From positions 1 to 64,000 of the IMG/VR virus record IMGVR_UViG_3300030116_007024: a DNA stretch of 64,000 nucleotides. The stretch is one strand, 5' to 3'. Shown in pieces: positions 540-42,126 of the stretch (its first letter is position 1; the number at the start of each line of letters is the position of its first letter). The notes below the pieces were generated by a model. The model was not told the DNA's origin and did not search any database. It saw nothing but the letters and a program-made list of their open reading frames with translations. This stretch comes from a virus. A program made the position numbers and the translations under genes.

Positions 540-1507
540 AAGTACCAATTACAGAATACGATGTTGTATTCATTAGTTATGATGAGCCCAATGCTGATGA
601 TAACTATGCGGATTTAATTAATAAAATTCCATGGGCTAAACGTTCACATGGAGTATGGGGAAGCGATGCCGCACATAAAGCGGCCGCGGAAATGGCTGAA
701 ACTGATAGATTTATTGGCATTGATGCTGATAATATTATTGATCCTGAATTTTTAAACATTGAATTAGATAATACAACAATTGATCTGTCTATTGATGTTA
801 TTAGCTGGAGTGCTAAAAATCAAGTAAACGGTTTAGTATATGGCAATGGAGGAATCAAGTGTTGGCCAAAAGTGGTTGTTGAGAATATGATGACACATGA
901 AAATGCCAATTCTAAGGAAGGACAAGTAGATTTTTGTTGGGACATACATTATGTGCAAATGAATAACATTTATAGCACAATTTTTAATAATGCAACTCCG
1001 TATCAAGCATATAGAGCAGGCTTTCGTGAAGGCTGTAAAATGAGTTTAGATATGGGAGATGTGGTACCTATAGACCAATTTAAAAAACGAGTACACTATA
1101 AAAATTATAAACGATTATTAGTATGGATGTCTGTTGGTGCAGATACATTAAATGGTTGGTGGTGCATGTATGGTGCTCGCCTAGGATGCTGGATGACAAA
1201 CTTTGAACGAGATAACTGGAATTGGGTCGATGTTCGAGATTTTGAATGGCATACACGTTACTGGAAAGAGAATATTGTTCCACAATTTGAAAACAAAGAA
1301 GGTATTGGTGTAACATGTACTCACACAGGGTGGACATATGACTTTGATAAATTAATATCTGAAACATGTAGAATAGGTGCGGATTTAAGATCAGAATTAA
1401 ATTTAGAAATTGCCGATCTTGATGATTTAGGTAGTAAATTCTTTAAAGAAACTTACACAAATCCGCCACGAACCGCCCCACTAATTAGAGAAGATCAAAT
1501 ATTATGA
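536..1507 (+). CDS. GT-A-like glycosyltransferase (paralog of 21877..22605)
   Basis: N-terminal DVVFISYDE, HGVxGxxxAHK, DxD motif (IDADN), NGLVYGNGGIK, AGFREGCK. Confidence 0.7.
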   Translation: MKVPITEYDVVFISYDEPNADDNYADLINKIPWAKRSHGVWGSDAAHKAAAEMAETDRFIGIDADNIIDPEFLNIELDNTTIDLSIDVISWSAKNQVNGLVYGNGGIKCWPKVVVENMMTHENANSKEGQVDFCWDIHYVQMNNIYSTIFNNATPYQAYRAGFREGCKMSLDMGDVVPIDQFKKRVHYKNYKRLLVWMSVGADTLNGWWCMYGARLGCWMTNFERDNWNWVDVRDFEWHTRYWKENIVPQFENKEGIGVTCTHTGWTYDFDKLISETCRIGADLRSELNLEIADLDDLGSKFFKETYTNPPRTAPLIREDQIL

Positions 1508-3012
1508 GTATATTAAATGAAAATTGGGAAAAAAGAGGTAATTATGTAGTTCATTCGTCGCATAATTTTGAATTAATGAAAAACAAACAAAACGAAATAG
1601 GTCCTGGATTTTGTATAGCAAAGTGGAATCAAGTTTCGTTACATTTAGAAACAGGATTGACACATAGTTGTCATCATCCGACAGCTCATGAAATACCGTT
1701 AGCAGAATTATCAATAGATCCTTCTGCATTACACAATACAGAGTTTAAAAAACAACAAAGAAAAGCTATGCTTGAAGGTAATAGGCCTAAAGAATGCGAT
1801 TATTGTTGGCGTGTCGAAGATCAAAATCAGTATAGCGATCGGCAAATGAAAACTATCGAGCCTTGGGCATTAAAAGATTTTGATGACATAAGTTTAATGA
1901 CCGGTGATGAAAATGTTCCTCCAAAATATTTAGAAGTTAGTTTTACTAATGCATGTAATCAAAAATGTATATATTGTGGACCTGAATTTAGTACGGCTTG
2001 GATAGAAGAATTGAAGGAACAAGGACCGGTAGTAGTTCTAAAAGAACATAATAACTTTAAACGTATAGAGCAAGGATGGCAAAATTTAGATGATCTTTAT
2101 TATAAAAAAAATCAAACCAATCCTTATATAGATGCATTTTGGAAATGGTTTCCAGAAATTTATGATAAATTAGAAATATACAGAATAACAGGAGGCGAAC
2201 CTTTATTAAGCAAAGATACTTTTAAAAGTATGGAGTTTTTTTTAAAAAATCCCAATACTAATTTAGCATTAGCAATTAATAGTAACCTTAGTGTACCTGA
2301 AAGCGTGTGGTCAAAATTTATAATTTTATGTAAAAAGCTCATTACTTCAAAAGCAATAGGTAAATTAACAATATTTACAAGTATAGAAAGTTGGGGCGAA
2401 CAAGCAAATTATGCTAGATATGGTTTAGATTTTGATATCTATAGACAACGTATAGAAGAAATTGCAAATATAAATGATTTAAGATGTGTTTTTATGTCTA
2501 CTTATAATATTTTAAGTGTACCTTCTTTTTATAAAATATTAGAATGGCAATTAGAGCTAAAGAAAAAATACAATACAATAAATCTAGATAATGAAAAACG
2601 ATCACATTCTTGGTTGATGGGTATAGATATCCCGTACCTTAGACATCCTCAATATTTAGATGTAGGTATTCTCACAGATGATATAAAAGAAAAATATATG
2701 TTACCTTGTTTAGATTTCATGAAAAACAATATTTCAACAAACCATACCGGATTTGAAGAATACGAAATGATTAAGTTTCAACGTATTATAGAATCTATTG
2801 ATATTCCTAAAGAAAATAAAACAAAATTAAGTATACGTAGAGCAAAATTTTATGATGTAATAAATGAAATGGACAAAAGACGAGGTACAAATTTTTTAAA
2901 GACTTTTCCTGAATTAAAAGAATTTTATTTTGAATGTGAAAAAAATAGGAATATGATAAAATATGCGGTAAATGTAATGGCAGATGGAGAAGCATATGAG
3001 TACAGTTCATAA
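1504..3012 (+). CDS. Radical SAM protein with N-terminal Twitch-like domain (SCHHP subtype)
   Basis: CNQKCIYC and TGGEP; N-terminal FCIAKW...SCHHP...CDYCW; C-terminal DKRRGTNFLKTFPEL. Confidence 0.92.
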   Translation: MSILNENWEKRGNYVVHSSHNFELMKNKQNEIGPGFCIAKWNQVSLHLETGLTHSCHHPTAHEIPLAELSIDPSALHNTEFKKQQRKAMLEGNRPKECDYCWRVEDQNQYSDRQMKTIEPWALKDFDDISLMTGDENVPPKYLEVSFTNACNQKCIYCGPEFSTAWIEELKEQGPVVVLKEHNNFKRIEQGWQNLDDLYYKKNQTNPYIDAFWKWFPEIYDKLEIYRITGGEPLLSKDTFKSMEFFLKNPNTNLALAINSNLSVPESVWSKFIILCKKLITSKAIGKLTIFTSIESWGEQANYARYGLDFDIYRQRIEEIANINDLRCVFMSTYNILSVPSFYKILEWQLELKKKYNTINLDNEKRSHSWLMGIDIPYLRHPQYLDVGILTDDIKEKYMLPCLDFMKNNISTNHTGFEEYEMIKFQRIIESIDIPKENKTKLSIRRAKFYDVINEMDKRRGTNFLKTFPELKEFYFECEKNRNMIKYAVNVMADGEAYEYSS

Positions 3013-4504
3013 AGCATTTTTAGAGCCTACTATTAGCTATATTAAACGAGTTCTCAATTCAAAAAGTAAATCATTTTGCGGAGCAAAATGGTATAATGCA
3101 ACTATATGGCTAGGACAAGGAGTTAATTCTAGTTGTCACCATCCACCTCCGCATCCTATAGACCAAAATGAGATTAAAACTAATTATAAAGCAATTCATA
3201 ATACAAAATATAAAAAAATAGTTCGTAAACAAATGTTAGAAGGAATTCGGCCTTCTGAATGCGAATATTGTTGGAAAATAGAAGATAATAATATTAATAA
3301 TATAAGTGATAGATTTCATAAAAGTGCAGTATATACAGAAAAAGAATTGCGAGATATTACTAAATTAAAATGGAATGAAGATGTAGATTTATTAACATTA
3401 GAAATTGCATTTGATAATAATTGTAATTTTGCATGTAGTTATTGTAATCCTACGTGCTCCACTACATGGAGTAAAGATATAAAAACACATGGTGCATATG
3501 ATAGTTTACAAGGAGCAGATGATGTCGGTTTAACATTTGCTCAAACCGGAGAATGGGCGTTACCACATGGATCAAAAAATGAGAATAATCCTTATGTAGA
3601 AGCATTTTGGAAATGGTGGGATGCTGATTTATGTACTACATTAAAAGAATTGCGGGTAACTGGTGGTGAACCAACTGTTAGTAATAATTTTTGGAAGTTA
3701 TTAGATTGGTGGAAAGAGCATAAAGAATGCCAAGTAATATTAGCAATTAATTCTAATTTAGGTTTTAAATTTGATATATGCGATAAATTAGTTAAAGCTA
3801 GCCATTATATAAACACATGTCATATTTACACAAGTAACGAAAGTTATGGCAAACATGCAGAATACATTAGAGATGGATTAGTTTGGGACCTATGGACTGA
3901 TAATTTAAATATTATAGCAAAACATAGTAGAATAAAATTAATACATATAATGTTTACGATTAATGCATTGTGTTTAGCAAGCATTACAAAATTAATAGAA
4001 TATATTTTTACTTTTCAAGAAACATATAAAGATATTAAAATAGATATGAGTTTTAATATCTTGCGGTGGCCTAGTTTTCAAAGTATTACAACATTACCTA
4101 AATATTTGGTTGAACAAAAAATTAAAGAATTGGAGGAATTTATAGAACATAATAGTCAGCCACCATATTTTAAGGAAGGTTTAAAAAGTCATCAAGTAGA
4201 TAGATTAACTACTTTAATAAATTATTTAAAAAACGAAGTTGAAGGATTTGATGGCGCAACCGATTTAACCAAAAGACAACAAAATTTTAAAGCATTTTAT
4301 ACTCAATACGATCAACGCAGAAATAAATCTTTTATTGATACATTTGCTGATTGGCCAGAATTAGTTAAATGGTATAATTCTTTAGATTATGAATTTGTAC
4401 CTCAAGAACAAACTAGCGGTGTTCAACCTAAAAATGATCATTATGAAAGAGTGTTAAAGGAAAATAAGGAACAGGTACTTCTCCTTATGGAGGAAAGTAT
4501 GTAG
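2984..4504 (+). CDS. Radical SAM protein with N-terminal Twitch-like domain (SCHHP subtype), tandem paralog of the previous gene
   Basis: CNFACSYC and TGGEP; FCGAKW...SCHHP...CEYCW; NPYVEAFWKW shared with the previous ORF. Confidence 0.92.
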   Translation: MEKHMSTVHKAFLEPTISYIKRVLNSKSKSFCGAKWYNATIWLGQGVNSSCHHPPPHPIDQNEIKTNYKAIHNTKYKKIVRKQMLEGIRPSECEYCWKIEDNNINNISDRFHKSAVYTEKELRDITKLKWNEDVDLLTLEIAFDNNCNFACSYCNPTCSTTWSKDIKTHGAYDSLQGADDVGLTFAQTGEWALPHGSKNENNPYVEAFWKWWDADLCTTLKELRVTGGEPTVSNNFWKLLDWWKEHKECQVILAINSNLGFKFDICDKLVKASHYINTCHIYTSNESYGKHAEYIRDGLVWDLWTDNLNIIAKHSRIKLIHIMFTINALCLASITKLIEYIFTFQETYKDIKIDMSFNILRWPSFQSITTLPKYLVEQKIKELEEFIEHNSQPPYFKEGLKSHQVDRLTTLINYLKNEVEGFDGATDLTKRQQNFKAFYTQYDQRRNKSFIDTFADWPELVKWYNSLDYEFVPQEQTSGVQPKNDHYERVLKENKEQVLLLMEESM

Positions 4505-12699: not shown

Positions 12700-12701
12700 A
12701 T

Positions 12702-13250
12702 ATGGCCGAACACCAAGGATTAGTAATAGTGGATGCGTGGGATTATGATGCGTATATTAAAAAGCGTAACGAAATACCGTATTCCCAAGAATGTGCTAAA
12801 GATGGTAGCGAATTTTCTATTTTTTTAAATAGAGTTTGTGAAAAAGAAAGAGCAAATGGCACGACAATAATTTTTGATATTGGATTTAATAAACTAATAG
12901 ATAAAATTACTGTTGACGAAAAAACAGATTTAATATTACCATACATGTATGAAAATAATTATATGAATATAATAAAAGAACGTAAAATAAACGAACTATA
13001 TTTTTGTGGATTTCATTTTGGATTATGTATACATGATAAAATTGCTAACGTAAGTGAATCGACTGATTATAACGGTAAATTAGGCATTATTATAAATTTA
13101 AGTATGTTATTACCAGTAGATACATTTAAAAACAAGTTTGAGCGTTTTCATAAACCTAATAAACCTAGATATAAACCAAATCATGCATGGGATTATTATT
13201 TATGGACACCAAAATGTGAATTTGAAAAAATAGATATAAGTTTTCCATGA
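12702..13250 (+). CDS. Isochorismatase/cysteine-hydrolase-fold protein
   Basis: LVIVDAW and INELYFCGFHFGLCI; paralogous to 7285..7782. Confidence 0.6.
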   Translation: MAEHQGLVIVDAWDYDAYIKKRNEIPYSQECAKDGSEFSIFLNRVCEKERANGTTIIFDIGFNKLIDKITVDEKTDLILPYMYENNYMNIIKERKINELYFCGFHFGLCIHDKIANVSESTDYNGKLGIIINLSMLLPVDTFKNKFERFHKPNKPRYKPNHAWDYYLWTPKCEFEKIDISFP

Positions 13251-14299
13251 CAATATTAAATAAATGGGTTTGTACTAAACCTTGGAATTTTTTAGATGTA
13301 AATCATTATGGTTCTTATATGTGTTGTCCGAGTTGGTTACCTGAAGATATAACTAATCATAATACGCCAGAAGAAGTATCTATTACAAAAGGATGGTTTA
13401 GCGAAAAGGCAGACAGAATTAGAAAAAGTATGTTAGATGGAAGTTTTAGGTACTGCAATCATAAAATTTGTCCTGAATTAAGTGAAGTATTAGCAGGTAG
13501 AGAAACTGAAACTGAATTTTTTAAACTTAAAAAAAATTTTAAACCACCAAAAAAACCAACTGTAGAATTTATATGTTTTGGTCAAGATAGAAGTTGTAAT
13601 ATAAAATGTCCAAGTTGTCGATCAAATGTAATACCTAATGATCGTTTAAATAGTCTGGAACATATAAAAAAACAACAAATACAAGACGAAATTGAAAATA
13701 ATTTTAGTAATAGTATTAAGCGTATCTTATTAACAGGATCAGGTGATCCTATATACAGTAAAATTTATAGAGACTTTTTAATAAACTTCGATAAGACAAA
13801 GTATCCGCAATTAGAAGAAATTCAGATAGTAACAAATGGTATTTTGTTAAATAAAAAAATGTGGAATAGTTTTAATTGTAAAGAGTTCATTAAAATTTTA
13901 GAAATTAGTTTTGATGCTGGTACTAAAAATACATACGAAAATGTTACTCGTTTAGGAGGTAATTGGGATAAGCTCATATCTAATGTAAAGTTTTTAGCAA
14001 TGTTGGCAGATATGAAAAGACATTTTATTTTTAGTTTTGTTGTAAGTGAATATAATTTCAAAGAAATGGTAGCATTAGTAAATCTTATTGATGATATAAC
14101 TAATGGTATGATAGGATCTAAAACTATTCGTTTTTCACAACATGTATATTGGAATACAGGCGCATTAAGTCAAGATGAAGTTAAAAAAATAAGTATTTTT
14201 GATCCTAAACATTTACATCATGACAAATTTTTAAAAGAATTAAAAACTATTAATAAACACCCAAATGTATCGCATAACTTTCATCATTTAATACAATGA
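13247..14299 (+). CDS. Radical SAM protein with N-terminal Twitch-like domain
   Basis: CNIKCPSC, TGSGDP, ISFDAGT; N-terminal CTKPW...MCCPSW...YCNHKICP. Confidence 0.92.
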   Translation: MTILNKWVCTKPWNFLDVNHYGSYMCCPSWLPEDITNHNTPEEVSITKGWFSEKADRIRKSMLDGSFRYCNHKICPELSEVLAGRETETEFFKLKKNFKPPKKPTVEFICFGQDRSCNIKCPSCRSNVIPNDRLNSLEHIKKQQIQDEIENNFSNSIKRILLTGSGDPIYSKIYRDFLINFDKTKYPQLEEIQIVTNGILLNKKMWNSFNCKEFIKILEISFDAGTKNTYENVTRLGGNWDKLISNVKFLAMLADMKRHFIFSFVVSEYNFKEMVALVNLIDDITNGMIGSKTIRFSQHVYWNTGALSQDEVKKISIFDPKHLHHDKFLKELKTINKHPNVSHNFHHLIQ

Positions 14300-15018: not shown

Positions 15019-15029
15019 AAGGATAATTT

Positions 15030-16235
15030 ATGAAAATAGGATTTATTGGTTTAGGAAAACTAGGATTAGAATGTGCAGAAGCAATAGTAGATAAAGGTAT
15101 ACCTGTTACTGGATATGATATTAAAGAAAGGACAAGTAATAAAGTATCTATTGTGTCTGACATAAAAGATGCAGTAACGGGAATGGACTTTATTTTTATT
15201 GCAGTAGAAACACCGCACAATGCAAAATATGACGGTAGCATTCCTTCATCTCATTTATCAAATAAAGATTTTGATTATTCGCATGTTAAAGATGTTCTTG
15301 GACGAATTAATAATATAGTAACAAAAGATCAAGCTATTGTATTAATTAGTACTGTATTACCTGGAACATGTAGAGAACAATTTATACCTATGCTAGGATT
15401 AGGAACAAATTTTATATATAATCCATATTTAATTGCAATGGGAACTACTACATGGGATATGTTAAATCCGGAAATGATTATTATTGGTAATGCCACAGGT
15501 AAACAAGACGATGTTACAGCCAAATTAGTAGATTTTTATAATATGATATTAGAAAAAAATAATACTAGATTTGAAATAGGAACATGGGACGAAGGTGAAT
15601 GTATTAAAATCTTTTATAATACATTTATATCTGCCAAGCTAAGTCTTGTAAATATGATCCAAGATGTTGCTGAATGCAATGGTAATATAAATTGCGATGT
15701 TGTTGCAAATGCTATTACTAATAGTACTCAACGTATTATTAGTCCTATGTATATGAAACCAGGTATGGGCGATGGAGGCCCATGTCATCCTAGAGATAAT
15801 ATTGCATTAAGATATCTAGCAGAAAAGTTAGATCTAGGATATGATTTATTTGATGCCATAATGACCGCTAGGGAGGTACAAGCAAAAAAATTGGCAGAAA
15901 AATTAATTAGTTATGATTTGCCTGTTGTTATTTTAGGCAAATCATTTAAACCAAATACAGAATTTACAGATGGCAGTTATGGAATGTTAGTAGGACATTA
16001 TGTAAAAGAGCTTGCTCCTCATTTAGATTTATATTATGACAAAAATCCAAACGATACGTTCGAACCTATTACTGAAGAAATACATGATGTACCTTGTACA
16101 TATCTATTAGGCCATCGAGGTAAATATTATGATTTTAATTTTAATCGTAATAGTATTATAGTAGATCCTTGGAGAGAGTTTGAAACAGACAATACAAACA
16201 TCAAAGAAATAGTTCATTATGGAAACACTAGATAA
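15030..16235 (+). CDS. ugd: UDP-glucose/GDP-mannose 6-dehydrogenase family protein
   Basis: GFIGLGKLG Rossmann motif, ISTVLPGT, KIFYNTFISAK, GDGGPCHPRD catalytic Cys, GKSFKPNT. AAGGA RBS. Confidence 0.93.
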   Translation: MKIGFIGLGKLGLECAEAIVDKGIPVTGYDIKERTSNKVSIVSDIKDAVTGMDFIFIAVETPHNAKYDGSIPSSHLSNKDFDYSHVKDVLGRINNIVTKDQAIVLISTVLPGTCREQFIPMLGLGTNFIYNPYLIAMGTTTWDMLNPEMIIIGNATGKQDDVTAKLVDFYNMILEKNNTRFEIGTWDEGECIKIFYNTFISAKLSLVNMIQDVAECNGNINCDVVANAITNSTQRIISPMYMKPGMGDGGPCHPRDNIALRYLAEKLDLGYDLFDAIMTAREVQAKKLAEKLISYDLPVVILGKSFKPNTEFTDGSYGMLVGHYVKELAPHLDLYYDKNPNDTFEPITEEIHDVPCTYLLGHRGKYYDFNFNRNSIIVDPWREFETDNTNIKEIVHYGNTR

Positions 16236-16237
16236 TA

Positions 16238-16852
16238 ATGGCGAGAATTACACTAAGTTACATATGTGCGGTAGAATGGACATATCCAACAGTAAATGAA
16301 TTAAGAGACAAGTATGACATTGGTATTCACATAGATTTAATGGATGGGCATTTTGTACCAAGACTTGGAGTACAACCAGAATTAATTGATCTTTTAAAAA
16401 ACGAATGCAATGTTCCTGTTGATGTACATTGTATGCTCACTGCTAATAACCACGCCTGGAAAGATGTGTTAAATAGCAAAGCAGACGTAATTTATGCACA
16501 CTACGAAGCATTTCATAGTAAAGAACACACACTAAAATTTTTAAAACAAGATAGCAGATTACAATTAGCATTTAAACCGCAATGGACTATCCAACAAATA
16601 AATGAAATTTGCGAGGAAATGGGCGTCAATGATTATTTGCTAATGGCATACAATCCAGGTATAACAAAACAGAATTCGTTTTACGATTTAAAAAAGATAA
16701 TGAATACACAACGTTATGTAACAGTAGACGGCGGTATTGATTTTGATACAGTCGAGCAGTTTCTGGGCCACAATAAAGTTAGCCTAGTAGCAGGTAGTAA
16801 ATTATTATTCAATTCAAAATATAAACAAAACATAGAAAGATTATTATGTTAA
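16238..16852 (+). CDS. rpe: Ribulose-phosphate 3-epimerase family protein
   Basis: IHIDLMDGHFVP, DVHCM, LMAYNPG, VDGGI, VAGS. Confidence 0.88.
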   Translation: MARITLSYICAVEWTYPTVNELRDKYDIGIHIDLMDGHFVPRLGVQPELIDLLKNECNVPVDVHCMLTANNHAWKDVLNSKADVIYAHYEAFHSKEHTLKFLKQDSRLQLAFKPQWTIQQINEICEEMGVNDYLLMAYNPGITKQNSFYDLKKIMNTQRYVTVDGGIDFDTVEQFLGHNKVSLVAGSKLLFNSKYKQNIERLLC

Positions 16853-17211
16853 ATGGAACAGATTTAATTAGTGTAGCAAAACAATATTTTGATGCATGGA
16901 ATAACCAAAATATAAATCATTTGTCATTTCTATTTGATAAAGATGTTGTATTACAAGATTGGGATATAACTGCAACAGGCAAAGAAGATGTAGTAAAAGC
17001 CAATCAAAATATTTTCAATAGTGTTAACAACATTTCAGCAGAAGTACAAGACATAGGCTATAACGATAATAAAGTTTATGCAGAATTACTTATAAAAGTA
17101 TTATCATTAGATGCAGTTGATCCATCAGATGAAGATACAATAAAAGTATTAGACGTTATAACAATTAACGACAATTTAAATATAACTAAAATCAGTGCAT
17201 ATAAACAATGA
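16846..17211 (+). CDS. NTF2/SnoaL-like protein
   Basis: YFDAWN...LFDKDVVLQDW...GKEDV...VLDVITINDNLNITKISAY pattern; 121 aa. Confidence 0.78.
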   Translation: MLNGTDLISVAKQYFDAWNNQNINHLSFLFDKDVVLQDWDITATGKEDVVKANQNIFNSVNNISAEVQDIGYNDNKVYAELLIKVLSLDAVDPSDEDTIKVLDVITINDNLNITKISAYKQ

Positions 17212-18629: not shown

Positions 18630-19101
18630 TTTTTGGAACGAAATACCTGACGTATATAACGAGCAACATGAAAAAACAATTATAGGGCAAATTGTAAATG
18701 CCCGCAATATTGTTTTTGTAGCAAAAGGTCGGGTTGGCTTAGTTACAAAAATGTTTATGCAACGTTTAATTCAATATGGTTACAACTGTTATTGGCATGA
18801 TGATTTACATGTACCCAAACTTAATAATCAAGACTTAATTATATTCGTTTCTGCTAGTGGACAAACGCTAAGTTCGTGGATATATACACAAGTAGCAAAA
18901 GATATTAATGCTAGAACAATGGCAATAACATTTAATGACACAGGGCGTATAACGAGAGATGTTAAAGTTCCTGTTATATACGATGAAAAGCGAAATAATA
19001 TGCCAATGAAGTCATATTATGAACTAGCATTTATGTATATTTTTGAAAAGTTATTAAGTACGTTTGATACAAGTAAATTTACACACACAAATTTCGAATG
19101 A
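18622..19101 (+). CDS. SIS-domain sugar-phosphate isomerase (3-hexulose-6-phosphate isomerase-like)
   Basis: VFVAKGRVGLVTKMFMQRL, DLIIFVSASGQT, AITFN. Confidence 0.8.
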   Translation: MSNFWNEIPDVYNEQHEKTIIGQIVNARNIVFVAKGRVGLVTKMFMQRLIQYGYNCYWHDDLHVPKLNNQDLIIFVSASGQTLSSWIYTQVAKDINARTMAITFNDTGRITRDVKVPVIYDEKRNNMPMKSYYELAFMYIFEKLLSTFDTSKFTHTNFE

Positions 19102-27796: not shown

Positions 27797-28313
27797 ATAT
27801 TTTATATGTTACGCAGGAGGTTGGCATGGAGATTTTATACATGATTTATTAAGTTTTAAATATCATGGTGTACGTGAACATGGACTAATTGAAGACTGGA
27901 GGAAAACATATCCAAACCATATATACATAGTTCCGTATAGTGTAAAAAATAATCGTTACAGAGTTTTTAATTGGTGGGAAAAAATTGGCAGGCGTAAACA
28001 TAGTGAAACAAATTTAAAAGACTATTATAAAAATTGTATAGACGATACACATAAAAATCTTAGTCAGCCAGATGTATATCCGCTAGATATTGATTTATTT
28101 TTAGACGAAAGCAACATGTTATATGTTAATTGGTTCTTTAGCCAGTTTAATATAGTGTGGTCGGAAAGAATGGAGATGCGGTATGTACAATTTAAAAAAT
28201 ACGAGTATTTTATGAACGAATTAGATAATAATTTTTTAGGAGAAATTAATGACGTCGACTTTTTGCATCCTGCCGTGGATGCACATCGCAACAAATTCTA
28301 CAGGAAACCTTAG
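27771..28313 (+). CDS. Hypothetical protein, P-loop/sulfotransferase-like N-terminus
   Basis: CYAGGWHGDFI resembles YISGTAGDFF in 47917..48861. Start uncertain. Confidence 0.55.
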   Translation: MHLKNNIHEYFICYAGGWHGDFIHDLLSFKYHGVREHGLIEDWRKTYPNHIYIVPYSVKNNRYRVFNWWEKIGRRKHSETNLKDYYKNCIDDTHKNLSQPDVYPLDIDLFLDESNMLYVNWFFSQFNIVWSERMEMRYVQFKKYEYFMNELDNNFLGEINDVDFLHPAVDAHRNKFYRKP

Positions 28314-29421
28314 GGTTTGTTGTAATGCAGTACCTACAAAAAGTTATATCTATAAGTCTGATGGAAAGCCATATAAACTATTTAGAGATGATATTAATGA
28401 AGCATGGCATTCTGAATCATATAAAAGCATACGACAAGACTTTTTAAATGGAAATAAACCTGAAATATGCGAACGATGTTTTAGAGAAGAAGATGCAGGA
28501 TTAAAAAGTGCAAGGCAAAGTGCTAATGAACAATGGGGTACAGAATGCAGTATGACAACTACTCCTAAAATGGATATACGTTATGTTGATTTACGTCTAG
28601 GTAATTTGTGCAATTTAAAGTGCAGAATGTGCAATCCATATTCATCTAGTATATGGGCAAAAGAATGGAATAAAGTAGTTACAAAAGAAGAACAAATTTC
28701 ACAAGATGAAGTTACTAGACTTGCACAAATGGATTGGCCTACAAAGGATAAAACGTGGGATAATATAAAAGAAATAATGCCTAGTGTAGAAATGATATAT
28801 TTTACTGGAGGCGAACCTACATTAACATTGCAACAAATGTCATTATTAGAATATTGTATTGATAATAATTACACAAACGTTACATTAAAATACAATACTA
28901 ATTTAACTAACATACCAGAACGTATGTTAGACTTGTGGAAGAACTTTAAAAAAATTAAAGTTAACGCAAGTATAGATGCAACATACAGACTTAACAGATA
29001 TATACGTTATCCTAGTGACTTTGAAGAAATTGAAAATAATTTAGAAATACTAGGCAACCTTCCAAACGTAAATATACAAATACACACTACTGTTCAAATG
29101 TATAACATAATGAAATTGGACAGAATATTACAGTATTTTGCAGACTATGATCACTATTTAAATATATTAAACCATCCTGAATATTTAAACATTCGTGTAC
29201 TAAAGCAACGACATAAAGAGTTAGTAACAGATCGTTTAGAACGATCATGGAAAGCAGGAGTACAAAATGAAAAGATTAAAGGTATAATTAAATATATGCA
29301 AGAAGACTGGTCAGACAAATGGCCGGAATTTGTTGCCTACACAAAAAACGTTGATAAACAACGTAATGAAACCATTTTAGAACATATAGAGGAATTCAAT
29401 GAAGATTGCAATGACTGGTAA
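28249..29421 (+). CDS. Radical SAM protein with N-terminal Twitch-like domain
   Basis: FCILPW...RVCC...CERC; CNLKCRMC; TGGEP; YIRYPS. Confidence 0.94.
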   Translation: MTSTFCILPWMHIATNSTGNLRVCCNAVPTKSYIYKSDGKPYKLFRDDINEAWHSESYKSIRQDFLNGNKPEICERCFREEDAGLKSARQSANEQWGTECSMTTTPKMDIRYVDLRLGNLCNLKCRMCNPYSSSIWAKEWNKVVTKEEQISQDEVTRLAQMDWPTKDKTWDNIKEIMPSVEMIYFTGGEPTLTLQQMSLLEYCIDNNYTNVTLKYNTNLTNIPERMLDLWKNFKKIKVNASIDATYRLNRYIRYPSDFEEIENNLEILGNLPNVNIQIHTTVQMYNIMKLDRILQYFADYDHYLNILNHPEYLNIRVLKQRHKELVTDRLERSWKAGVQNEKIKGIIKYMQEDWSDKWPEFVAYTKNVDKQRNETILEHIEEFNEDCNDW

Positions 29422-29971
29422 TCCTGAATATGGATTAGCAAAATCATTTAAAAAAATAAGTCCTGAAACAGAATTTTTTAGTAGAGAAACTGGTTGGGAT
29501 TTTGGTAATATTTTAACACGAAAAAAATTAGCAGATCATTTAAATGCTGAAGGATTTAATGTGTTTATTAATAGTAGTGCTTTAAATAATTTTAATCAAT
29601 GTTTATTACTAGAACAAATCTGGGATAGATGGAAGTTAACAGAACGACCTAAACAAATTATTTGTATTGGAAGCACTATTGATAGAGTCTCAAAAGGAAG
29701 TGATTGGATTTATGGTACTGAAAAACATGCATTAAAACAAATGTGCAATGGACTTAGTTTATTAGGAGTATGGAGTGAAATACAATGTAAAGTCACATAC
29801 ATTAGTTTTGGCTCACTTCGCACTCCTAAAGTTACACAAAAACACCCTGATAGGCGACTTATGGATGTTAATAAAGCCGCTACATATATTAAATGGGTAT
29901 TAGATCAACCCCAAGACATAAGTTTAAATGAACTTAGTATAGACCCAAAGCAGATTTTAGCAGATGACTGA
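29399..29971 (+). CDS. Short-chain dehydrogenase/reductase-like protein (compact)
   Basis: KIAMTGNPEYGLA, FINSS, IGS, YGTEK (YxxxK). Confidence 0.75.
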   Translation: MKIAMTGNPEYGLAKSFKKISPETEFFSRETGWDFGNILTRKKLADHLNAEGFNVFINSSALNNFNQCLLLEQIWDRWKLTERPKQIICIGSTIDRVSKGSDWIYGTEKHALKQMCNGLSLLGVWSEIQCKVTYISFGSLRTPKVTQKHPDRRLMDVNKAATYIKWVLDQPQDISLNELSIDPKQILADD

Positions 29972-31361
29972 TACATTTTGTGCCTTACCTTGGCTACATT
30001 TAAGTACTAGACCCGATGGTGCAATGCGAGTTTGTTGTACTGCAAATGCGTCATCTGTAGGTGCAACAAATGAGAAACTGTACGGAGGTAAGCAAGGCGA
30101 ATTACGTACAGAAGATGGCACTCCAGCAAATTTAAATAATTCTGATTTTTTGTCCTCATGGAATAATACGTATATGAAAAATGTACGTAAGCAAATGATG
30201 AACGGGCAAGAACCTCCTAGTTGTCATAAGTGTTATAAAGAAGAACGTGCAGGACATAATTCTAAACGTATGTGGGAAACACGTTATTGGGCAGACTATG
30301 GATATACAAAAGAAAAGTTAATAGCAGAAACAAGTGTTGACGGAGAAATAGAACCTAAAGTACGTTATATTGATTTACGTTTAGGTACTAAGTGCCAATT
30401 GGCTTGTGTTATGTGTTCACCACACGATTCAAGTGGATGGGTTAAAGAATGGATAGACATACATAACGAATGGACACTACCTGAATTAAAAGAAATTAAT
30501 CAATGGCACGGTGGCGGTAAAGACGAATGGGGTGCAACATATAATTGGCATAAAGATAATCCTGTATTTTGGGAGCAACTATATAGTCAAATTCCACATA
30601 TGGAACAGTTATATTTTGCAGGTGGCGAAAGCACTATTATAGACGAGCATTATGAATTACTTGACAAAGTAATAGAAATGGGTTATAATGAAAAGATAGA
30701 ATTACGATATAATAGTAATGGCATAGAACTTCCTGATCGTTTATTAGAATTATGGACAAAATTTAGAAAAGTTAGATTTCATTATTCAGTAGATGCAATA
30801 GGCAAACAAAATGATTTTATACGTTACCCTAGCGAATGGAGTCATACTGAAAAACAATTTTGGCGTTTAAATAACGACACATCAAACAACGTGGAGGTAA
30901 CTGTTGCATGTGCAGTAAATGCACTCAACATATATTACATTCCTGATTTTTTAAAATGGAAACTTGAACAAGGTTTTACAAAAATTAATATGTGGCCATT
31001 TGGGGCAGGTGGTATTAATTATCATTTTGTATATTGGCCTGCTTACCTTAATGTTAAATCACTTCCTATTGGTTTTAAAGAACAATGTGAAGCAAAGTAT
31101 GAGGAATTTTATCCTTGGTGGGAAAAAAATTGGGAGAAAGGCGTTCCGTCTTGGCATAAAGGAAAAGTAACATACGATAAATGGCGAGAAGCAAGTTACG
31201 GTATTAAACGATTACAAGGAATGATTAAGTTTATGAAATCAGAAGATTGGTCTATTCGTGTACCGCAGTTTAAACAGTATATAGATTCCTTAGCAAAACA
31301 TAGAAAAATGCCATTTAAGGAATACTTTCCGGAGATGCATAGTGCCATCGCAGATCAATGA
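29964..31361 (+). CDS. Radical SAM protein with N-terminal Twitch-like domain
   Basis: FCALPW...RVCC...CHKC; CQLACVMC; AGGES; FIRYPSEW; EYFPEM. Confidence 0.94.
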   Translation: MTDTFCALPWLHLSTRPDGAMRVCCTANASSVGATNEKLYGGKQGELRTEDGTPANLNNSDFLSSWNNTYMKNVRKQMMNGQEPPSCHKCYKEERAGHNSKRMWETRYWADYGYTKEKLIAETSVDGEIEPKVRYIDLRLGTKCQLACVMCSPHDSSGWVKEWIDIHNEWTLPELKEINQWHGGGKDEWGATYNWHKDNPVFWEQLYSQIPHMEQLYFAGGESTIIDEHYELLDKVIEMGYNEKIELRYNSNGIELPDRLLELWTKFRKVRFHYSVDAIGKQNDFIRYPSEWSHTEKQFWRLNNDTSNNVEVTVACAVNALNIYYIPDFLKWKLEQGFTKINMWPFGAGGINYHFVYWPAYLNVKSLPIGFKEQCEAKYEEFYPWWEKNWEKGVPSWHKGKVTYDKWREASYGIKRLQGMIKFMKSEDWSIRVPQFKQYIDSLAKHRKMPFKEYFPEMHSAIADQ

Positions 31362-32475
31362 AACTATATGTATATTGCCATGGGTGCATCATTATATATC
31401 ACAAAATCATGATGTGCGTCCTTGTTGTACATCATGGGATTTAACGTTAGGCAATATAACTAAAAATACTTTATCATATATTGATAAAGATATTCCGATG
31501 CAAAAACTAAGACAAAAAATGCAAGATGGTATAAAGCCTAAAACATGTTTAGAATGTTTTCAACGTGAGAAAAATGGTAATAGAAGTCCACGCCAAGAAT
31601 TTAATCATCTATATAATGAAGAGCTTGAGGATATTTTAAATAATAAACCTGTAAAGAAAAAATATCTAGAAGTAAATTTTAGTAATTTATGTAATGCTAG
31701 ATGTAAATCTTGTTCTCCATTAAACAGTACACAATGGTATGAGACTGCTAGAAAATTAAAGGATTGGGAATATTATGATGATCTAGGAAAGTTACCACAC
31801 AATGTTGATTGGGATAACATAGATATTGATTGGCAAGAATTAGATTTAATAAAAATATTAGGTGGTGAGCCGTTTTTACATCCTGATAATGAAAAAATTA
31901 TACAACGTATTTTTGATAAAGGACAGCCTGAAAAATGTAGTTTAGAAGTGTTTACTAATGCAAGCATATTTCCAGATAATAATATGATTGAAGCATTAAA
32001 AAGATTTAAACGTGTTGAAATAAATTTAAGTATTGACGGACTAAGAGAAACATACGAATATATAAGAACTGGACTAAATTTTAATGAAGTATTAGAAGTA
32101 ATTGCAAAATGGAATGAAGTAGATATACCTAATAAACGATTAGGATTTCAAATGTTAGTGCAAGTTGATAATATTTTACAAGTAGCAGAATATGATAAAT
32201 TTTTTAAAGAATTTGTAAACTATAATGGTAACACAGAAAAAAGTTACATGCATTATAATATTTTAACTAATCCAGTATGGCTTCGTCCTAGGAATGCTTC
32301 TGATAATGATAAAGCAAAAGCGATTAAATATTTAGAAGCATATATGGAAATTGATGAAGGATTACAAAAAAGAGATTATGCTAAATTCAAAACAATTATA
32401 AAAGAATTACAACAACCTGCAGAAGATAGATATAAATTAGAACAATTTAATAAAGTATTCCATGGAACATCCTAA
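31342..32475 (+). CDS. Radical SAM protein with N-terminal Twitch-like domain
   Basis: ICILPW...RPCC...CLEC; CNARCKSC; LGGEP; SIDG...EYIR. Confidence 0.94.
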   Translation: MPSQINETICILPWVHHYISQNHDVRPCCTSWDLTLGNITKNTLSYIDKDIPMQKLRQKMQDGIKPKTCLECFQREKNGNRSPRQEFNHLYNEELEDILNNKPVKKKYLEVNFSNLCNARCKSCSPLNSTQWYETARKLKDWEYYDDLGKLPHNVDWDNIDIDWQELDLIKILGGEPFLHPDNEKIIQRIFDKGQPEKCSLEVFTNASIFPDNNMIEALKRFKRVEINLSIDGLRETYEYIRTGLNFNEVLEVIAKWNEVDIPNKRLGFQMLVQVDNILQVAEYDKFFKEFVNYNGNTEKSYMHYNILTNPVWLRPRNASDNDKAKAIKYLEAYMEIDEGLQKRDYAKFKTIIKELQQPAEDRYKLEQFNKVFHGTS

Positions 32476-34582: not shown

Positions 34583-34586
34583 GATG

Positions 34587-34615
34587 ATAAATATTTGTGG
34601 TTCAACTCTATTTAT
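34587..34615. promoter_or_regulatory. Pair of opposed late-promoter-like ATAAATA boxes serving divergent genes
   Basis: ATAAATA on + at 34587-34593 and on - at 34609-34615, each about 30 nt upstream of an ATG in a 42-nt gap. Confidence 0.55.
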
Positions 34616-34624
34616 TAATCAATT

Positions 34625-37054: not shown

Positions 37055-37712
37055 AGAAACTATATTAATTTTAGGACCACAAGGAATTGGCAATGAATGT
37101 ATGGCCAACATGCTTGATGCACATCCTGAATTACATGTTCCGGGTAGAGCAGGAGGACAATCTGAAACAGGCAAGTTTCATTTTGGTTACGGATATGAAA
37201 TAGGCGAAGTTAATTTACGATGGGAACCTCCAAGACTTCCAGCTGGCGAACATGCAAGACAAGTGCAACATGAAGTAGACATGGCTAGCCAACAAATTAT
37301 ACATAGAACTTCAGATCCACCATTAATTATAGGAAGCCATCAGTTTTGGCCTTATACCGCAGATATTTTTACAAACTTAAAAATTATTGTTATAATGCCT
37401 AGGTATTCATCAACAAACGAAAAACATTTACTAGAAAATTACATAGCAAAAAATTATGAAAGAGATAAAGACATATTAAGTGTACAAGGATTAATAACAG
37501 GATTTAGTCCATTTATGAATGGAATTAGAAAATTCTATGAAGATGCTTTACCGTTTTTACATTGTTATGATACTTGCATTGTAATGTTTGAAGATATTTT
37601 TTTAGGGCGACATTATTACGAATACAAGGCAATAGCTAACTTTTTAAACCTAGAAGAACGCCCGGACATATATTTTAAATATCACAAGTTGTTTACAAAT
37701 TATGGAGAATAA
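37029..37712 (+). CDS. P-loop/sulfotransferase-like hypothetical protein
   Basis: LILGPQGIGNECMANMLDAHPEL, IVMFEDIF, IANFLNL. Start moved to ATG 37029. Confidence 0.55.
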   Translation: MENRKHIAKETILILGPQGIGNECMANMLDAHPELHVPGRAGGQSETGKFHFGYGYEIGEVNLRWEPPRLPAGEHARQVQHEVDMASQQIIHRTSDPPLIIGSHQFWPYTADIFTNLKIIVIMPRYSSTNEKHLLENYIAKNYERDKDILSVQGLITGFSPFMNGIRKFYEDALPFLHCYDTCIVMFEDIFLGRHYYEYKAIANFLNLEERPDIYFKYHKLFTNYGE

Positions 37713-38910
37713 ACAATTTTATCATAACGAATCAATACCTTTATGTCTTGCTCCGTGGCATGCTCTAACTGTTAATTGGAACGGAAATATAAAGCCTGAT
37801 GTACATGCTAAAATGGTATTGGGCAATATTAAAGAAGATTCATTAGATGATATTTACAAGTCTAAAAAGTTTATTGATTTAACTAATAAGATGAAGCAAC
37901 GTGAGTGGCCCGAAGGCTGCCAGAGATGCAAAGATAAAGAAAGTATTAGTGGCAGAAGTAGACGTACATATTTTTGGGATACATTACCGTTAGACTTGCG
38001 AACAAACATATCATTTAAAAATAAGTTATCATATTTAGATATTAACACAAGCAATAAATGTAATTTAAAATGCATACATTGTAATGGCGAAGTCAGCACA
38101 AGTTGGATTAAGGATGAAAAAAAGTTAAACAGAGAACATGTACACCAAAAAGAAGTACGTTATCAAAAGTTAACAGAAGAAGATATTGATAGGTTATTTA
38201 ATTGTGATGCAATTAAAGGAATAGATACTATTGCATTACGTGGAGGAGAACCATTAGATGAGCCCAACAACATTTACATTATACAAAAGTTAGAGCAACT
38301 AGGTATTATAGGAAATGTAGTTTTAGATATATCTACTAATTTAACTATATTAAATGATAAAATACTTAATCTGTTTAGCAAGTTTAAACGTGTATTAATG
38401 TATGTTAGTTTAGAAGGTGTACACGAACGTTATGAGTATATACGTGGAGGTAAAAATTTTACATTTGCTGATTTAGAAAATAACATAAAAATAATTAAAC
38501 AACTTAATAATGTAGAAATTTGTTATGCAGTTACATTAATGAATTTGAACATTACTACTATACCCGAAATACATGAGTGGCTTACTACACAAGATTTATC
38601 ACGTTCATTAGTAAGTTTTTCTAATGTAGTTGCAAGACCAGAATATTTAAGGGCAGATATTTTACCAAATAACTTAAAAAAACAAACATTAGAAAAAATA
38701 CAAAATATACCTAAGGAATTAACGTGGCCTAAGGATAGTATTGATATTGGAGCAGGTGGATTATACGATACGGGCATGTCCGACATTATAAATATTTTAA
38801 ACAAAGATTCCGAAAACCCACCTTTGTTAAAACAGTTAACACAATATTTAAATAGTTTGGACAAATTACGTAATACAAACTGGAAACAAACATTCCCGGA
38901 GTTTACATGA
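37702..38910 (+). CDS. Radical SAM protein with a variant N-terminal Twitch-like domain
   Basis: CLAPW...KPDVH (CC replaced)...CQRC; CNLKCIHC; RGGEP; DKLRNTNWKQTFPEF. Confidence 0.94.
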   Translation: MENKQFYHNESIPLCLAPWHALTVNWNGNIKPDVHAKMVLGNIKEDSLDDIYKSKKFIDLTNKMKQREWPEGCQRCKDKESISGRSRRTYFWDTLPLDLRTNISFKNKLSYLDINTSNKCNLKCIHCNGEVSTSWIKDEKKLNREHVHQKEVRYQKLTEEDIDRLFNCDAIKGIDTIALRGGEPLDEPNNIYIIQKLEQLGIIGNVVLDISTNLTILNDKILNLFSKFKRVLMYVSLEGVHERYEYIRGGKNFTFADLENNIKIIKQLNNVEICYAVTLMNLNITTIPEIHEWLTTQDLSRSLVSFSNVVARPEYLRADILPNNLKKQTLEKIQNIPKELTWPKDSIDIGAGGLYDTGMSDIINILNKDSENPPLLKQLTQYLNSLDKLRNTNWKQTFPEFT

Positions 38911-39821
38911 AAACTAAAACAGGTGATCCTCAATTTAAATTTGAAAAAGGCGGAAATAGTGTATGGCATAATCCGTTTATGGAATTTATTGAAAAGGAAG
39001 AAATTTTACAAAAGTACCTCGATGGATTTCCAATGATTCAAGACGAATTCTTAGAATTATATCCTGAATGGATTAATACAAGTAAAAAGAATTCAGTCGT
39101 AGGAATGAATAATTTTAAGTATAAAGCAATTAGTGTAGGTTGCACACAAGCATTAGATTGGTTTCATTTATATGCGGCACAAAATGGTCTTATATTAAAA
39201 TTATTTAGAGGCGAATATCCATATAATAGAGATATCGGATTATTTAATTATCAAAAACAAATGATTAATGAATATGAAGAATTAAAAGAAGGCGATGCAC
39301 TTATATTAAGTTATCCATTTAGTGGTCATGGTAATAAACATGAACAATATGAATATGTAATGGAACATTGTACTAATTTAAACATTCCTGTATTAATAGA
39401 TTGTGCATGGTTAGGTAGTGCAAAGGATATGCATATTATGTTAGATTATGATTGCATATACGGTGTTGCATTTAGTTTGAGTAAATCATTAAGTTGCGGT
39501 AATTGGCGATCTGGTATGTTTTTAACAAATGACGAAAGATGTAGTATGGTATTATGTACAGAATGGAATCACCAAGTACATTTGAATACATGGATATGTT
39601 ATAATTTAATACAAAATTTTGGACCTGATTCATTGCAAGAAACATTTAATAAGTATCAACAAAAAGTTTGTAGAGATTATAAATTAATACCAACTAATAC
39701 TGTACACATTTGTTTATCATACGATGAAAAGTGGAAAGACTATCATAGAGATTTTAGTAAGTATTACAGAATTAATATTAGAAAGCCATTAAAACTTTAC
39801 AGAAAGCAAAAGATTGAATGA
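38907..39821 (+). CDS. PLP-dependent (fold I) aminotransferase-like protein
   Basis: GCTQALD, FRGEY, PVLIDCAW, FSLSKSL (PLP Lys), WRSG. Confidence 0.78.
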   Translation: MKTKTGDPQFKFEKGGNSVWHNPFMEFIEKEEILQKYLDGFPMIQDEFLELYPEWINTSKKNSVVGMNNFKYKAISVGCTQALDWFHLYAAQNGLILKLFRGEYPYNRDIGLFNYQKQMINEYEELKEGDALILSYPFSGHGNKHEQYEYVMEHCTNLNIPVLIDCAWLGSAKDMHIMLDYDCIYGVAFSLSKSLSCGNWRSGMFLTNDERCSMVLCTEWNHQVHLNTWICYNLIQNFGPDSLQETFNKYQQKVCRDYKLIPTNTVHICLSYDEKWKDYHRDFSKYYRINIRKPLKLYRKQKIE

Positions 39822-40927
39822 AATATGCTTGCCGTTATCCATTAAAGGCTGTTCATATATTTCCTAATACAAAGGACACTCCATGTTGTCGCTTTCATCA
39901 AATGTATCTTAAAGATAACGATGTAAGCACTATACAAAATTATGATAATATGTTTTCTTCTATAAGAAATAACATGTTAACATCACCAATACATGGTTGT
40001 GAAAAATGCTATGAGCAAGACGGACGAGGTATTGACAGTATGCGAGCAGAAAGTTATAGACTGTTTGATAACGATGATGTAGCATTAGAATGTATCGAAA
40101 TATCAGTAGGACGTTTATGTAATTTAGCATGTGTATCTTGTGGAATTGATTCTAGCACAACATGGGAAGAAGATTCTTATGTGTGGAACGATACACCAAC
40201 GCCAAAGGAAACAGAAGTACACATTCCTTTAAATAAAGACATATACAAAGATTTAAAAATTTTAAAAATTACTGGTGGTGAACCTTTTTTACATATTAAG
40301 TTTTTAAAGTTTCTTAAGTTTTTAGTAGATAGTGATTTGGCAAAAAATATTGAACTGGAAATTTTTACTAATACGACTTTTTATCCTACTAAGTTGGATG
40401 TTGATAATTTACTATGTTTTAAATCTGTTACTTTAAGTTGCAGTATTGATGGTATAGGCGAAGTTAATGAATTCCTACGATATCCAAGCAAATGGAAAGC
40501 AACAGAAGAAATATTTATTAAATGGAAAACATTAGCAGAAGCAAACAAAAATTTTAATATTAATGTTGCATGTACTGTTGGTTGGTTAAATCTTTTATAT
40601 GTTAAAGAATTATTACATTGGGCTAGAATACATCACGATACTCCAATGATTTTACAATTTATTGATGGTCCTTCGTGGCTTAGTATAAACTGTTTACCAT
40701 CAAATTACAAGAAAAAAATACGTTATGCTCTTGATTTACAATTTGATGAGTTCTATCATAAGCGACAAAAGTACGATAACATTTATAATCAATTAAAAGC
40801 AAAACTAGATTCGCCAGGTAATGTAGATGATTACGAACTTGGTGTTGAAAAATTACAAACATTAATGGCACATAGACAGCAAGACTTTAGTGCTTTTAAC
40901 AAGCATTTTGAATTGATTGCATTATGA
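39818..40927 (+). CDS. Radical SAM protein with N-terminal Twitch-like domain
   Basis: ACRYP...TPCC...CEKC; CNLACVSC; TGGEP; FLRYPSKW. Confidence 0.94.
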   Translation: MKYACRYPLKAVHIFPNTKDTPCCRFHQMYLKDNDVSTIQNYDNMFSSIRNNMLTSPIHGCEKCYEQDGRGIDSMRAESYRLFDNDDVALECIEISVGRLCNLACVSCGIDSSTTWEEDSYVWNDTPTPKETEVHIPLNKDIYKDLKILKITGGEPFLHIKFLKFLKFLVDSDLAKNIELEIFTNTTFYPTKLDVDNLLCFKSVTLSCSIDGIGEVNEFLRYPSKWKATEEIFIKWKTLAEANKNFNINVACTVGWLNLLYVKELLHWARIHHDTPMILQFIDGPSWLSINCLPSNYKKKIRYALDLQFDEFYHKRQKYDNIYNQLKAKLDSPGNVDDYELGVEKLQTLMAHRQQDFSAFNKHFELIAL

Positions 40928-42126
40928 AATCTATTTCACATTTAAAAGATTCAAATACATTTTGCTTATTACCTTTTATGCACACATATGGAAGTGCTAA
41001 TGGTAATCTTGTATTATGTTGTGAAGCACAAGAATATGAATGCGGAAAAGGTGGTAAAACACTTGACAGTAAATGGAATAGTAAAGAATATAAAGAAGTA
41101 CGTCAAGCCTTAGTAGAAGGTAGAAAGCACGAAGCATGCCATGTATGTTGGCACAACGAAGATAATGGAATAGAAAGCAATAGACAATTACACACAGAAC
41201 AACATTGGGATGAGTTTTCGCAATTAATAAAATTAAATGATGATTATTCAGTTAGTAATCAACCCGTATGGTTTGAATTAAAAATAGGAAACTTTTGTAA
41301 CCTTGCTTGTAGAATGTGTAGCACACATAGTAGTTATAAGCGAGCCCAAGATATTGATATTATAGGTAAGTATAGCGGATTTGATAATCAAGAAACAAAA
41401 CTTGTAACACCTGATAATTTGTTTTCAATACTGCAAAGTGATGTAGACTGGACTCAAGTAGAACGATTACAGTTTACAGGCGGTGAGCCTATAATAAATG
41501 AAATGCATTACGATTTATTGTATAGCATACCTAAAGAATATAGGCATTTAATTCGTTTGCGTTATGCAACAAATTTAACACATTTAAAGTATAAACAACA
41601 CGACTTAATAGATATATGGAGGCAATTTAAACATGTTAATGTTAAAGTCAGTATGGATGGCGCCGGCGATGTTTATAATTATATACGTATTGGTGCTAAT
41701 TTTGATACTGTCGCAAACAACATGAATAAATTAAAAAATGTTGATAACGTAGACATAGCAGTTGGTTTAACAATACAAGCATATAATGTATTTGCATTAC
41801 CTGAGTTTTTTGATTGGATAAATAGAACTGGAATTAACTTTAGTTTTGTTGGATCCTTTTTACTACAAACTCCAAAGTACCTTAATATATCAGTATTACC
41901 ACAACATTTAAAAGATCAAATTTGCGATAAACTTAGCAAGTATGATGGAAAAGTCAACATACATAGACACGATAATTTTGATACTATCATAGAGTATATG
42001 CAAAAAAATAATAACGAAAAACTCTATTGGAAGAAAACTATGCCATACACAAAAGATATGGAAAATAGACATCCAGATAGTATAACATTTAGTAACCTAC
42101 TTAAAACACATGGAATTAGTATATAA
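40924..42126 (+). CDS. Radical SAM protein with N-terminal Twitch-like domain
   Basis: FCLLPF...VLCC...CHVC; CNLACRMC; TGGEP; SMDG...NYIR. Confidence 0.94.
   Translation: MKSISHLKDSNTFCLLPFMHTYGSANGNLVLCCEAQEYECGKGGKTLDSKWNSKEYKEVRQALVEGRKHEACHVCWHNEDNGIESNRQLHTEQHWDEFSQLIKLNDDYSVSNQPVWFELKIGNFCNLACRMCSTHSSYKRAQDIDIIGKYSGFDNQETKLVTPDNLFSILQSDVDWTQVERLQFTGGEPIINEMHYDLLYSIPKEYRHLIRLRYATNLTHLKYKQHDLIDIWRQFKHVNVKVSMDGAGDVYNYIRIGANFDTVANNMNKLKNVDNVDIAVGLTIQAYNVFALPEFFDWINRTGINFSFVGSFLLQTPKYLNISVLPQHLKDQICDKLSKYDGKVNIHRHDNFDTIIEYMQKNNNEKLYWKKTMPYTKDMENRHPDSITFSNLLKTHGISI

Follow-up and report, generated by a model that had tools for sequence, protein, structure and literature searches.

Radical SAM (S-adenosylmethionine) enzymes of the SPASM/Twitch group carry, in the canonical order, an auxiliary iron-sulfur (Fe-S) domain after the catalytic core. 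The archetypal Twitch enzyme is BtrN, the butirosin 2-deoxy-scyllo-inosamine dehydrogenase (PDB 4M7T); the anaerobic sulfatase maturase anSME (PDB 4K38) and the cytosylglucuronate decarboxylase BlsE (PDB 7VOB) have SPASM or partial-SPASM domains at the C-terminus. An auxiliary [4Fe-4S] domain that precedes the core is known from the solved structure of a radical SAM enzyme acting on lipids, the tetraether lipid synthase GDGT-MAS/Tes (PDB 7TOL/7TOM); its N-terminal cluster is liganded by C73, C77, C80 and a His and is not described as Twitch, and the protein also has rubredoxin and C-terminal cluster domains (PMC9433317). A Twitch domain preceding the core is already curated in NCBIfam as NF033640 (N_Twi_rSAM, twitch domain-containing radical SAM protein), a family with no assigned function or substrate, so that this architecture as such is not new.

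Here we analyze an array of ten open reading frames (ORFs) encoding such proteins at positions 1504-42126 of the window, that is, of the whole stretch of DNA studied, the first 64 kb of the 98,776-bp IMG/VR viral record IMGVR_UViG_3300030116_007024. With a probability of about 0.55, these genes are old N_Twi subfamilies that form a tailoring battery acting on a nucleotide-sugar or glycan-type substrate in a jumbo phage.

Family membership, domain order and structure

All ten ORFs of the initial annotation were found at their coordinates on the + strand, tightly packed and in some cases overlapping by 4-29 nt. They are listed below with NF033640 scores, together with data on orthologues in a sister contig (G001) and a complete phage (G002). 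The ratio of non-synonymous to synonymous substitution rates (dN/dS) was calculated for this record versus G001, and clade support comes from the Shimodaira-Hasegawa-like approximate likelihood ratio test (SH-aLRT).

1504..3012, + strand: N_Twi radical SAM protein, long form, 502 aa, 310 bits; first of a conserved adjacent pair; Cys 37/56/98/101 and C151-x3-C-x2-C; orthologue in G002; G001 orthologue 94% identical, dN/dS 0.39
2984..4504, + strand: N_Twi radical SAM protein, 506 aa, 292 bits; 29-nt overlap with ORF 1504; no Pfam match
13247..14299, + strand: divergent N-terminal-Twitch-like radical SAM protein, outlier, 350 aa, 61 bits; C-x4-C replaces C-x2-C and SGDP replaces GGEP; tree branch length 3.34; no orthologue in G001 and no close relative among cultured phages
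28249..29421, + strand: N_Twi radical SAM protein, core subfamily, 390 aa, 374 bits; protein modelled
29964..31361, + strand: N_Twi radical SAM protein, core subfamily, best family match, 465 aa, 398 bits; dN/dS 0.09; relatives 62-63% identical in G002 and in L005, a probably phage-derived contig of a Crocinitomicaceae metagenome-assembled genome (MAG)
31342..32475, + strand: N_Twi radical SAM protein without C-terminal tail, 377 aa, 269 bits; SPASM 34 bits
32462..33772, + strand: N_Twi radical SAM protein, 436 aa, 302 bits; groups with a Bdellovibrionia orthologue (SH-aLRT 99%)
37702..38910, + strand: N_Twi radical SAM protein with three N-terminal Cys, the second module Cys being absent, 402 aa, 263 bits; SPASM 45.5 bits; dN/dS 0.16
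39818..40927, + strand: N_Twi radical SAM protein, 369 aa, 221 bits; dN/dS 0.06; 4-nt overlap with each neighbouring gene
40924..42126, + strand: N_Twi radical SAM protein, 400 aa, 326 bits; in a clade with Bdellovibrionia orthologues (SH-aLRT 99%)

The ten proteins had initially been described as radical SAM enzymes of one family. This holds for nine of them, which match NF033640 with 221-398 bits (curated cut-off, 170 bits), as confirmed on the DNA, and cover essentially the full 398-position profile with its N-terminal Twitch, core and C-terminal tail. ORF 13247 is below the cut-off and by that criterion not a member but a divergent relative; it is no orphan, as the C-terminal half of the fused metagenomic protein P0157 is 43% identical to it. 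Over-cut-off matches were found in none of 14 control genomes.

The CxxxCxxC core is intact in all ten proteins, and the GGE(P/S) motif in nine. The proposal that a cysteine module precedes this core was borne out throughout, with variants in 37702 and 13247. C-x2-(P/K)(W/F/L) is found upstream of the core in each protein and an N-terminal C-x2-C in nine; a CC pair is present in seven ORFs, with a single Cys at this place in 1504 and 2984 and none in 37702. The four N-terminal Cys positions, C…C(C)…C-x2-C, are occupied in eight proteins. An alignment of 88 diverse family members yields the consensus module C6-x12-G19-x4-C24C25…C74-x2-C77, which corresponds to the first half of a SPASM/Twitch signature; C74 and C77 do not vary, and conservation at the remaining module positions is at least 90%. 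No conserved Cys follows the core in this alignment, the auxiliary ones being only C6, C24/C25, C74 and C77, and therefore one auxiliary cluster is expected, as in Twitch rather than full SPASM domains.

In contrast to the canonical order, this domain occupies residues ~1-100 in all ten proteins. The Pfam SPASM domain (PF13186) is matched at residues ~6-90, before Radical_SAM, in six of the ten, four times above the gathering score, and positions 5-79 of a family profile align with residues 185-257 of BtrN, its C-terminal Twitch (E 4.5e-5). An internal contrast is provided by a radical SAM gene outside the array, at 59335..60252 (+), which follows the canonical order: its Twitch/SPASM-like segment is C-terminal, with residues 215-277, past the core, aligning with positions 17-75 of the NF033640 profile. 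This gene belongs to another cassette, together with genes for small proteins and GNAT-like genes.

At the C-terminus, the (Y/F)IRYPSxW-like motif noted initially is real and its Arg is invariant. The shared D-x2-R…FPE tail is less uniform than initially described: about 6-7 of the ten proteins show D/E-x2-R, just 3-4 show FPE, and 31342 and 13247 lack the tail in the alignment. Since the NF033640 match reaches the last profile positions, the tail is a family-wide part of the fold and not peculiar to this array. Two of its residues, D369 and R372, show at least 90% conservation among members from bacteria and phages and lie in helices modelled with confidence.

The AlphaFold2 model of the 28249 protein (predicted local distance difference test, pLDDT, 95.3; predicted template modelling score, pTM, 0.92) consists of a beta-hairpin with helices at residues 1-96, corresponding to Twitch, a barrel-like beta/alpha core at residues 112-306, and confident C-terminal helices up to residue 389. 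Z scores of the core against anSME, SkfB, viperin and BlsE are 13-14. Full-length structural matches in BFVD (template modelling score 0.7-0.84) all come from uncultured Caudovirales, and weaker ones from the Vibrio phages KVP40 and phi-pp2.

From this architecture we infer the Fe-S binding and the type of reaction. The core is predicted to be a partial TIM barrel in which CxxxCxxC would ligate a [4Fe-4S] cluster and GGE would contact SAM, and the four conserved Cys of the N-terminal Twitch, about 100 residues long, would hold one auxiliary [4Fe-4S] cluster; the family-wide helical C-terminal tail would be the third part. Reductive cleavage of SAM would generate a 5'-deoxyadenosyl radical that abstracts a hydrogen atom from the substrate, and the auxiliary cluster may accept or return an electron. 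By analogy with BtrN and BlsE, a hydroxylated carbon might thereby be oxidised or decarboxylated; epimerisation and dehydration are further options among sugar radical SAM enzymes.

Fusions of two or three N_Twi modules, 750-1466 aa in length, are common (P0136-P0168 and others). Among the 150 best representatives, 39 have at least 750 residues, nearly all with two or three matched stretches, and fused N_Twi ORFs without internal stops are present in phage contigs (G012:C1:20681-23185; G011:C1:19460-22159). In P0141 (950 aa) a 1504-type module is followed by a 2984-type module, which mirrors the overlapping pair of the window, and P0157 joins a 1504-type and a 13247-type module. Such natural di- and tri-module fusions suggest physical coupling of the modules, not specifically via the tail, for which a role in docking or oligomerisation had initially been put forward as a possibility. 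Selenocysteine in relatives was considered and rejected, as the in-match TGA codons are the genes' own stop codons.

Origin, age and spread of the array

The record represents part of the genome of an uncultured jumbo phage, about 350 kb in size. Downstream of the array it encodes, along with other PHROG families, a T4-type DNA polymerase (phrog_262, E 9e-195) that is 43-47% identical to those of the Rak2-like jumbo phages Atu_ph07, Phosso, XaC1 and K64-1 (347-490 kb) and 59% identical to that of G002, a complete phage genome of 328 kb with terminal repeats. G002 holds 14 over-cut-off NF033640 members and about seven further radical SAM genes, and G001 holds ten over-cut-off members. Nine of the ten window ORFs, all except 13247, have G001 orthologues with 83-97% identity. 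No tRNAs were found, and the only tandem repeat is trivial.

Two MAG contigs were rejected as cellular sources. L005 (JBDNIA010000282.1), the Crocinitomicaceae contig mentioned above, carries a phage-type polymerase 58% identical to that of the record, probably a phage contamination, and proteins of the Gammaproteobacteria MED685 contig L006 (NZGL01000008.1), also probably phage, are 79-89% identical to the products of 73081-74668 of the record. Both are probably jumbo-phage contigs mis-binned into MAGs, and only loci from Bdellovibrionia, Oligoflexia and Cytophagales were counted as truly cellular.

Pairwise identity of the ten ORFs is 14-33% (median 22%). In the maximum-likelihood tree of 83 sequences no two window copies are sisters, the window set requires 10 separate label origins, and the phage-like versus cellular label changes 20 times. 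Instead, nine of the ten ORFs pair with a G001 orthologue, and most also with orthologues from G002 and/or Bdellovibrionia, in well-supported clades. The identity range and the tree agree with the initial description of a diversified paralogue array of one family; a recent expansion within the phage is ruled out by the lack of sister pairs. The dN/dS ratio is 0.06-0.39 for all nine members, and, as judged by the tree and these ratios, the copies are old subfamilies under purifying selection. The low identity and the absence of sister copies fit distinct specificities rather than redundancy.

Between this record and G001, dS varies more than tenfold among neighbouring genes, from 0.06-0.07 for 1504 and 2984 to 0.5-0.7 for 28249, 32462 and 37702, which suggests mosaic recombination inside the cluster. 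The proteins of the two phages are about 90% identical, and clean single-gene gains and losses of N_Twi genes were observed: 13247 is present only here, and a gene found only in G001 (L017:12233-13450) lies between the orthologues of 21877-22605 and 22573-23718. The turnover of such accessory paralogues looks cassette-style.

An array like this is characteristic of a clade of jumbo phages that is abundant and uncultured. With an alignment of closer homologues as the query, relatives of the 28249 protein were found in at least 109 IMG/VR stretches; eight other phage records that were checked have 3-18 copies each, and five large phage contigs contain 3, 11, 11, 11 and 18 over-cut-off members. 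Cultured representatives exist as well: in the 255-kb Vibrio phage K566 (L114, OZ196521.1), N_Twi genes at 161.5-168.3 kb and 177.9-178.9 kb, two of them over the cut-off and three near it, belong to a small cluster of genes for hypothetical proteins, and its relative K567 has N_Twi genes in the same numbers. Bdellovibrionia do have genuine cellular arrays. In one of their MAGs the family is matched 20 times at E<=1e-30, with 13 of the matches within 31 kb of a 917-kb contig and flanked by rpoD, dnaG and an acyl-CoA carboxylase gene.

Gene context and candidate substrates

Two neighbouring features bear on the substrate.

536..1507, + strand: partner with a GT-A (glycosyltransferase A)/nucleotide-diphospho-sugar-transferase fold; 4-nt overlap with ORF 1504
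15030..20926, + strand: nucleotide-sugar-type cassette in the same + strand block as the array

Gene 536-1507 has no Pfam or PHROG match. Residues 1-150 of its AlphaFold2 model (pLDDT 87) match GT-A enzymes at Z 8-10.4, and D63-A-D65, a DxD-type motif, is invariant in 33 homologues. Searches yielded more than 7300 homologue clusters, some on contigs of 337-354 kb, and none of the 120 listed has a Pfam domain. The trio of a 536-type gene and two N_Twi genes recurs in G001, in G002 and in one MAG contig. Matches in the ESM Atlas, taken as leads only, give a GT2-like name for 536-1507 and ADI/DDAH for 36005-37054.

The cassette at 15030-20926 encodes an NDP (nucleoside diphosphate)-sugar dehydrogenase family protein (Pfam; TIGR03026 144 bits, below its cut-off), an Rpe family protein, a SIS domain protein, a NodU-type carbamoyltransferase and a weak NTP (nucleoside triphosphate)-transferase match. 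In the same strand block there are weak sulfotransferase, aminotransferase and GNAT matches and three non-Twitch radical SAM enzymes. The Bdellovibrionia array has a UDPGP-family gene at its head.

The region 536-54471 has only two gaps of at least 60 nt. No plausible ORF of precursor size was found in it, and there is no gap of this length beside the ten genes. Three paralogous proteins of 418-545 aa (5664-7301, 7766-9022 and 10565-11908) are encoded in the most AT-rich part of the window, with a G+C content of about 25-26%. They are matched only by a G002 ORF (26-37% identity); none of the three has a Pfam or PHROG match, and 10565 has no PDB sequence match either.

A carbohydrate is favoured as the substrate because of the GT-A-fold partner, the nucleotide-sugar genes and the absence of precursor-size ORFs, and we put a carbohydrate or nucleotide-sugar substrate at roughly even odds. 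The biological role that we infer is that of a battery of position-specific tailoring enzymes, active during infection, which together with the glycosyltransferase-fold, carbamoyl-, sulfo- and oxygenase-type enzymes would modify a nucleotide-sugar or glycan-type substrate.

Several observations weigh against such a role. Substrates are not known for any NF033640 member, and literature searches found no paper on the function of the family or on 9-10-copy arrays in jumbo phages. Peptides or proteins are the substrates of most SPASM/Twitch enzymes that have been characterised. With Z 8-10 and a Foldseek E of about 1e-3, the resemblance of 536-1507 to GT-A enzymes is moderate, and nucleotidyltransferases have a fold of this type as well. 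Cupins of the Asp/Asn-beta-hydroxylase type (PF05118), known members of which act on proteins or lipid A, are present in the phage cluster (43591-44373, 49924-50628 and 50625-51179) and in the Bdellovibrionia cluster (L028:3370-4173 and 6215-6958). The window yielded neither an exporter gene nor one of the Wzx/Wzy type, and most neighbours have no family match in Pfam, NCBIfam, PHROG and PDB sequence searches. As a separate observation, the O2-requiring PF05118 oxygenases co-occur with O2-sensitive radical SAM genes in phage and Bdellovibrionia clusters alike.

The cupins would also suit a protein or peptide substrate, such as virion or tail-fibre proteins or a RiPP-like (ribosomally synthesised and post-translationally modified peptide) product, on which the enzymes could introduce cross-links, epimerisations or oxidations. 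The secondary NCBIfam matches of the array, although weak, are mostly to peptide maturases (PapB, WgkB, GggB, YhhB), and the best structural matches include SkfB and anSME. However, neither Pfam nor NCBIfam detects an RRE leader-binding domain in the ten ORFs, the genes leave neither a precursor-size ORF nor intergenic room for one beside them, the partners conserved with them are a GT-A-fold protein and enzymes of the nucleotide-sugar type, and Twitch enzymes with a single auxiliary cluster include those acting on small molecules (BtrN, BlsE, MoaA). We consider a protein substrate, which could also be encoded away from the array, unlikely.

Still less likely is a product derived from a nucleotide or nucleoside rather than a glycan, either a hypermodified DNA base decoration or a small molecule of the nucleoside/aminocyclitol type. 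Viperin (acting on cytidine triphosphate, CTP), MoaA (guanosine triphosphate, GTP) and BlsE (cytosylglucuronate) are close structural neighbours, the conserved residues R62, R89, R253 and R372 could bind phosphate or carboxylate, and phage radical SAM enzymes are reportedly involved in thymidine hypermodification. A candidate QueC-like gene at 62213-62818 would fit such a product too. On the other hand, the same arrays stand amid housekeeping genes in Bdellovibrionia chromosomes, where no DNA-modification genes were seen, and the tailoring block covers most of the 64-kb window, which to our knowledge is far larger than any known DNA-modification pathway.

That the contig is a cellular glycosylation island miscalled as viral, or that the paralogues are decaying redundant copies, is very improbable: the record has a CheckV completeness of just 28% and no phage hallmark gene in its first 54 kb, and bacteria do have NF033640 arrays, but the same contig encodes the T4-type polymerase and other PHROG families, the terminal-repeat-complete phage with the related polymerase has 14 family members, and all ten ORFs are intact, nine with intact motifs and the low dN/dS ratios given above.

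Within the carbohydrate reading, the array may, tentatively, be the catalytic heart of a phage-encoded combinatorial system for radical editing of glycans. The 28249-type and 29964-type enzymes, the GT-A partner and the non-Twitch radical SAM enzymes would then form the conserved core, and the accessory paralogues, gained or lost singly between near-identical phages, would be swappable. The result could be a sugar decoration of the virion or of the infected cell that is hypervariable and extensively rebuilt. If this is true, it would represent a class of chemistry without a characterised example, one that the phages share with predatory Bdellovibrionia.

NF033640 is a very large family for which no reaction is known: a profile search gave 8053 proteins at E<=1e-30 among 1.84 billion representatives clustered at 50% identity. 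Its presence in 3-18 copies per abundant ~350-kb phage, inside large tailoring blocks, suggests that phage-host biology includes an important radical chemistry still to be explored. Identification of the substrate would give a function to thousands of genes and would also test whether Twitch works alike once it is N-terminal. The question is experimentally approachable, because family members are present in two Vibrio phages in culture, K566 and K567.

Comparison with known systems

The nearest described group is NF033640 itself, the setting here being 9-10 copies in a jumbo phage. Like BtrN, the proteins of the array have one auxiliary-cluster domain with the Cys…Cys…C-x2-C pattern; in BtrN the Twitch domain follows the core, whereas in the array it precedes it, in a permuted order, and overall sequence similarity to BtrN is marginal. 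The best match of the 28249 core, residues 109-353, is anSME (Z 13.9, root-mean-square deviation (rmsd) 3.5 over 216 residues), and BlsE is matched at Z 13.4 (rmsd 3.9 over 215 residues). These alignments cover only residues 109-359 of the model, with 18-20% identity, and the two enzymes differ from the array in the C-terminal position of their auxiliary domains, anSME also in having two auxiliary clusters. The alignment with GDGT-MAS (Z 11-11.5) extends into the N-terminal region of the model. GDGT-MAS is the nearest published precedent for an N-terminal auxiliary cluster, with a ligand motif that differs from that of the array.

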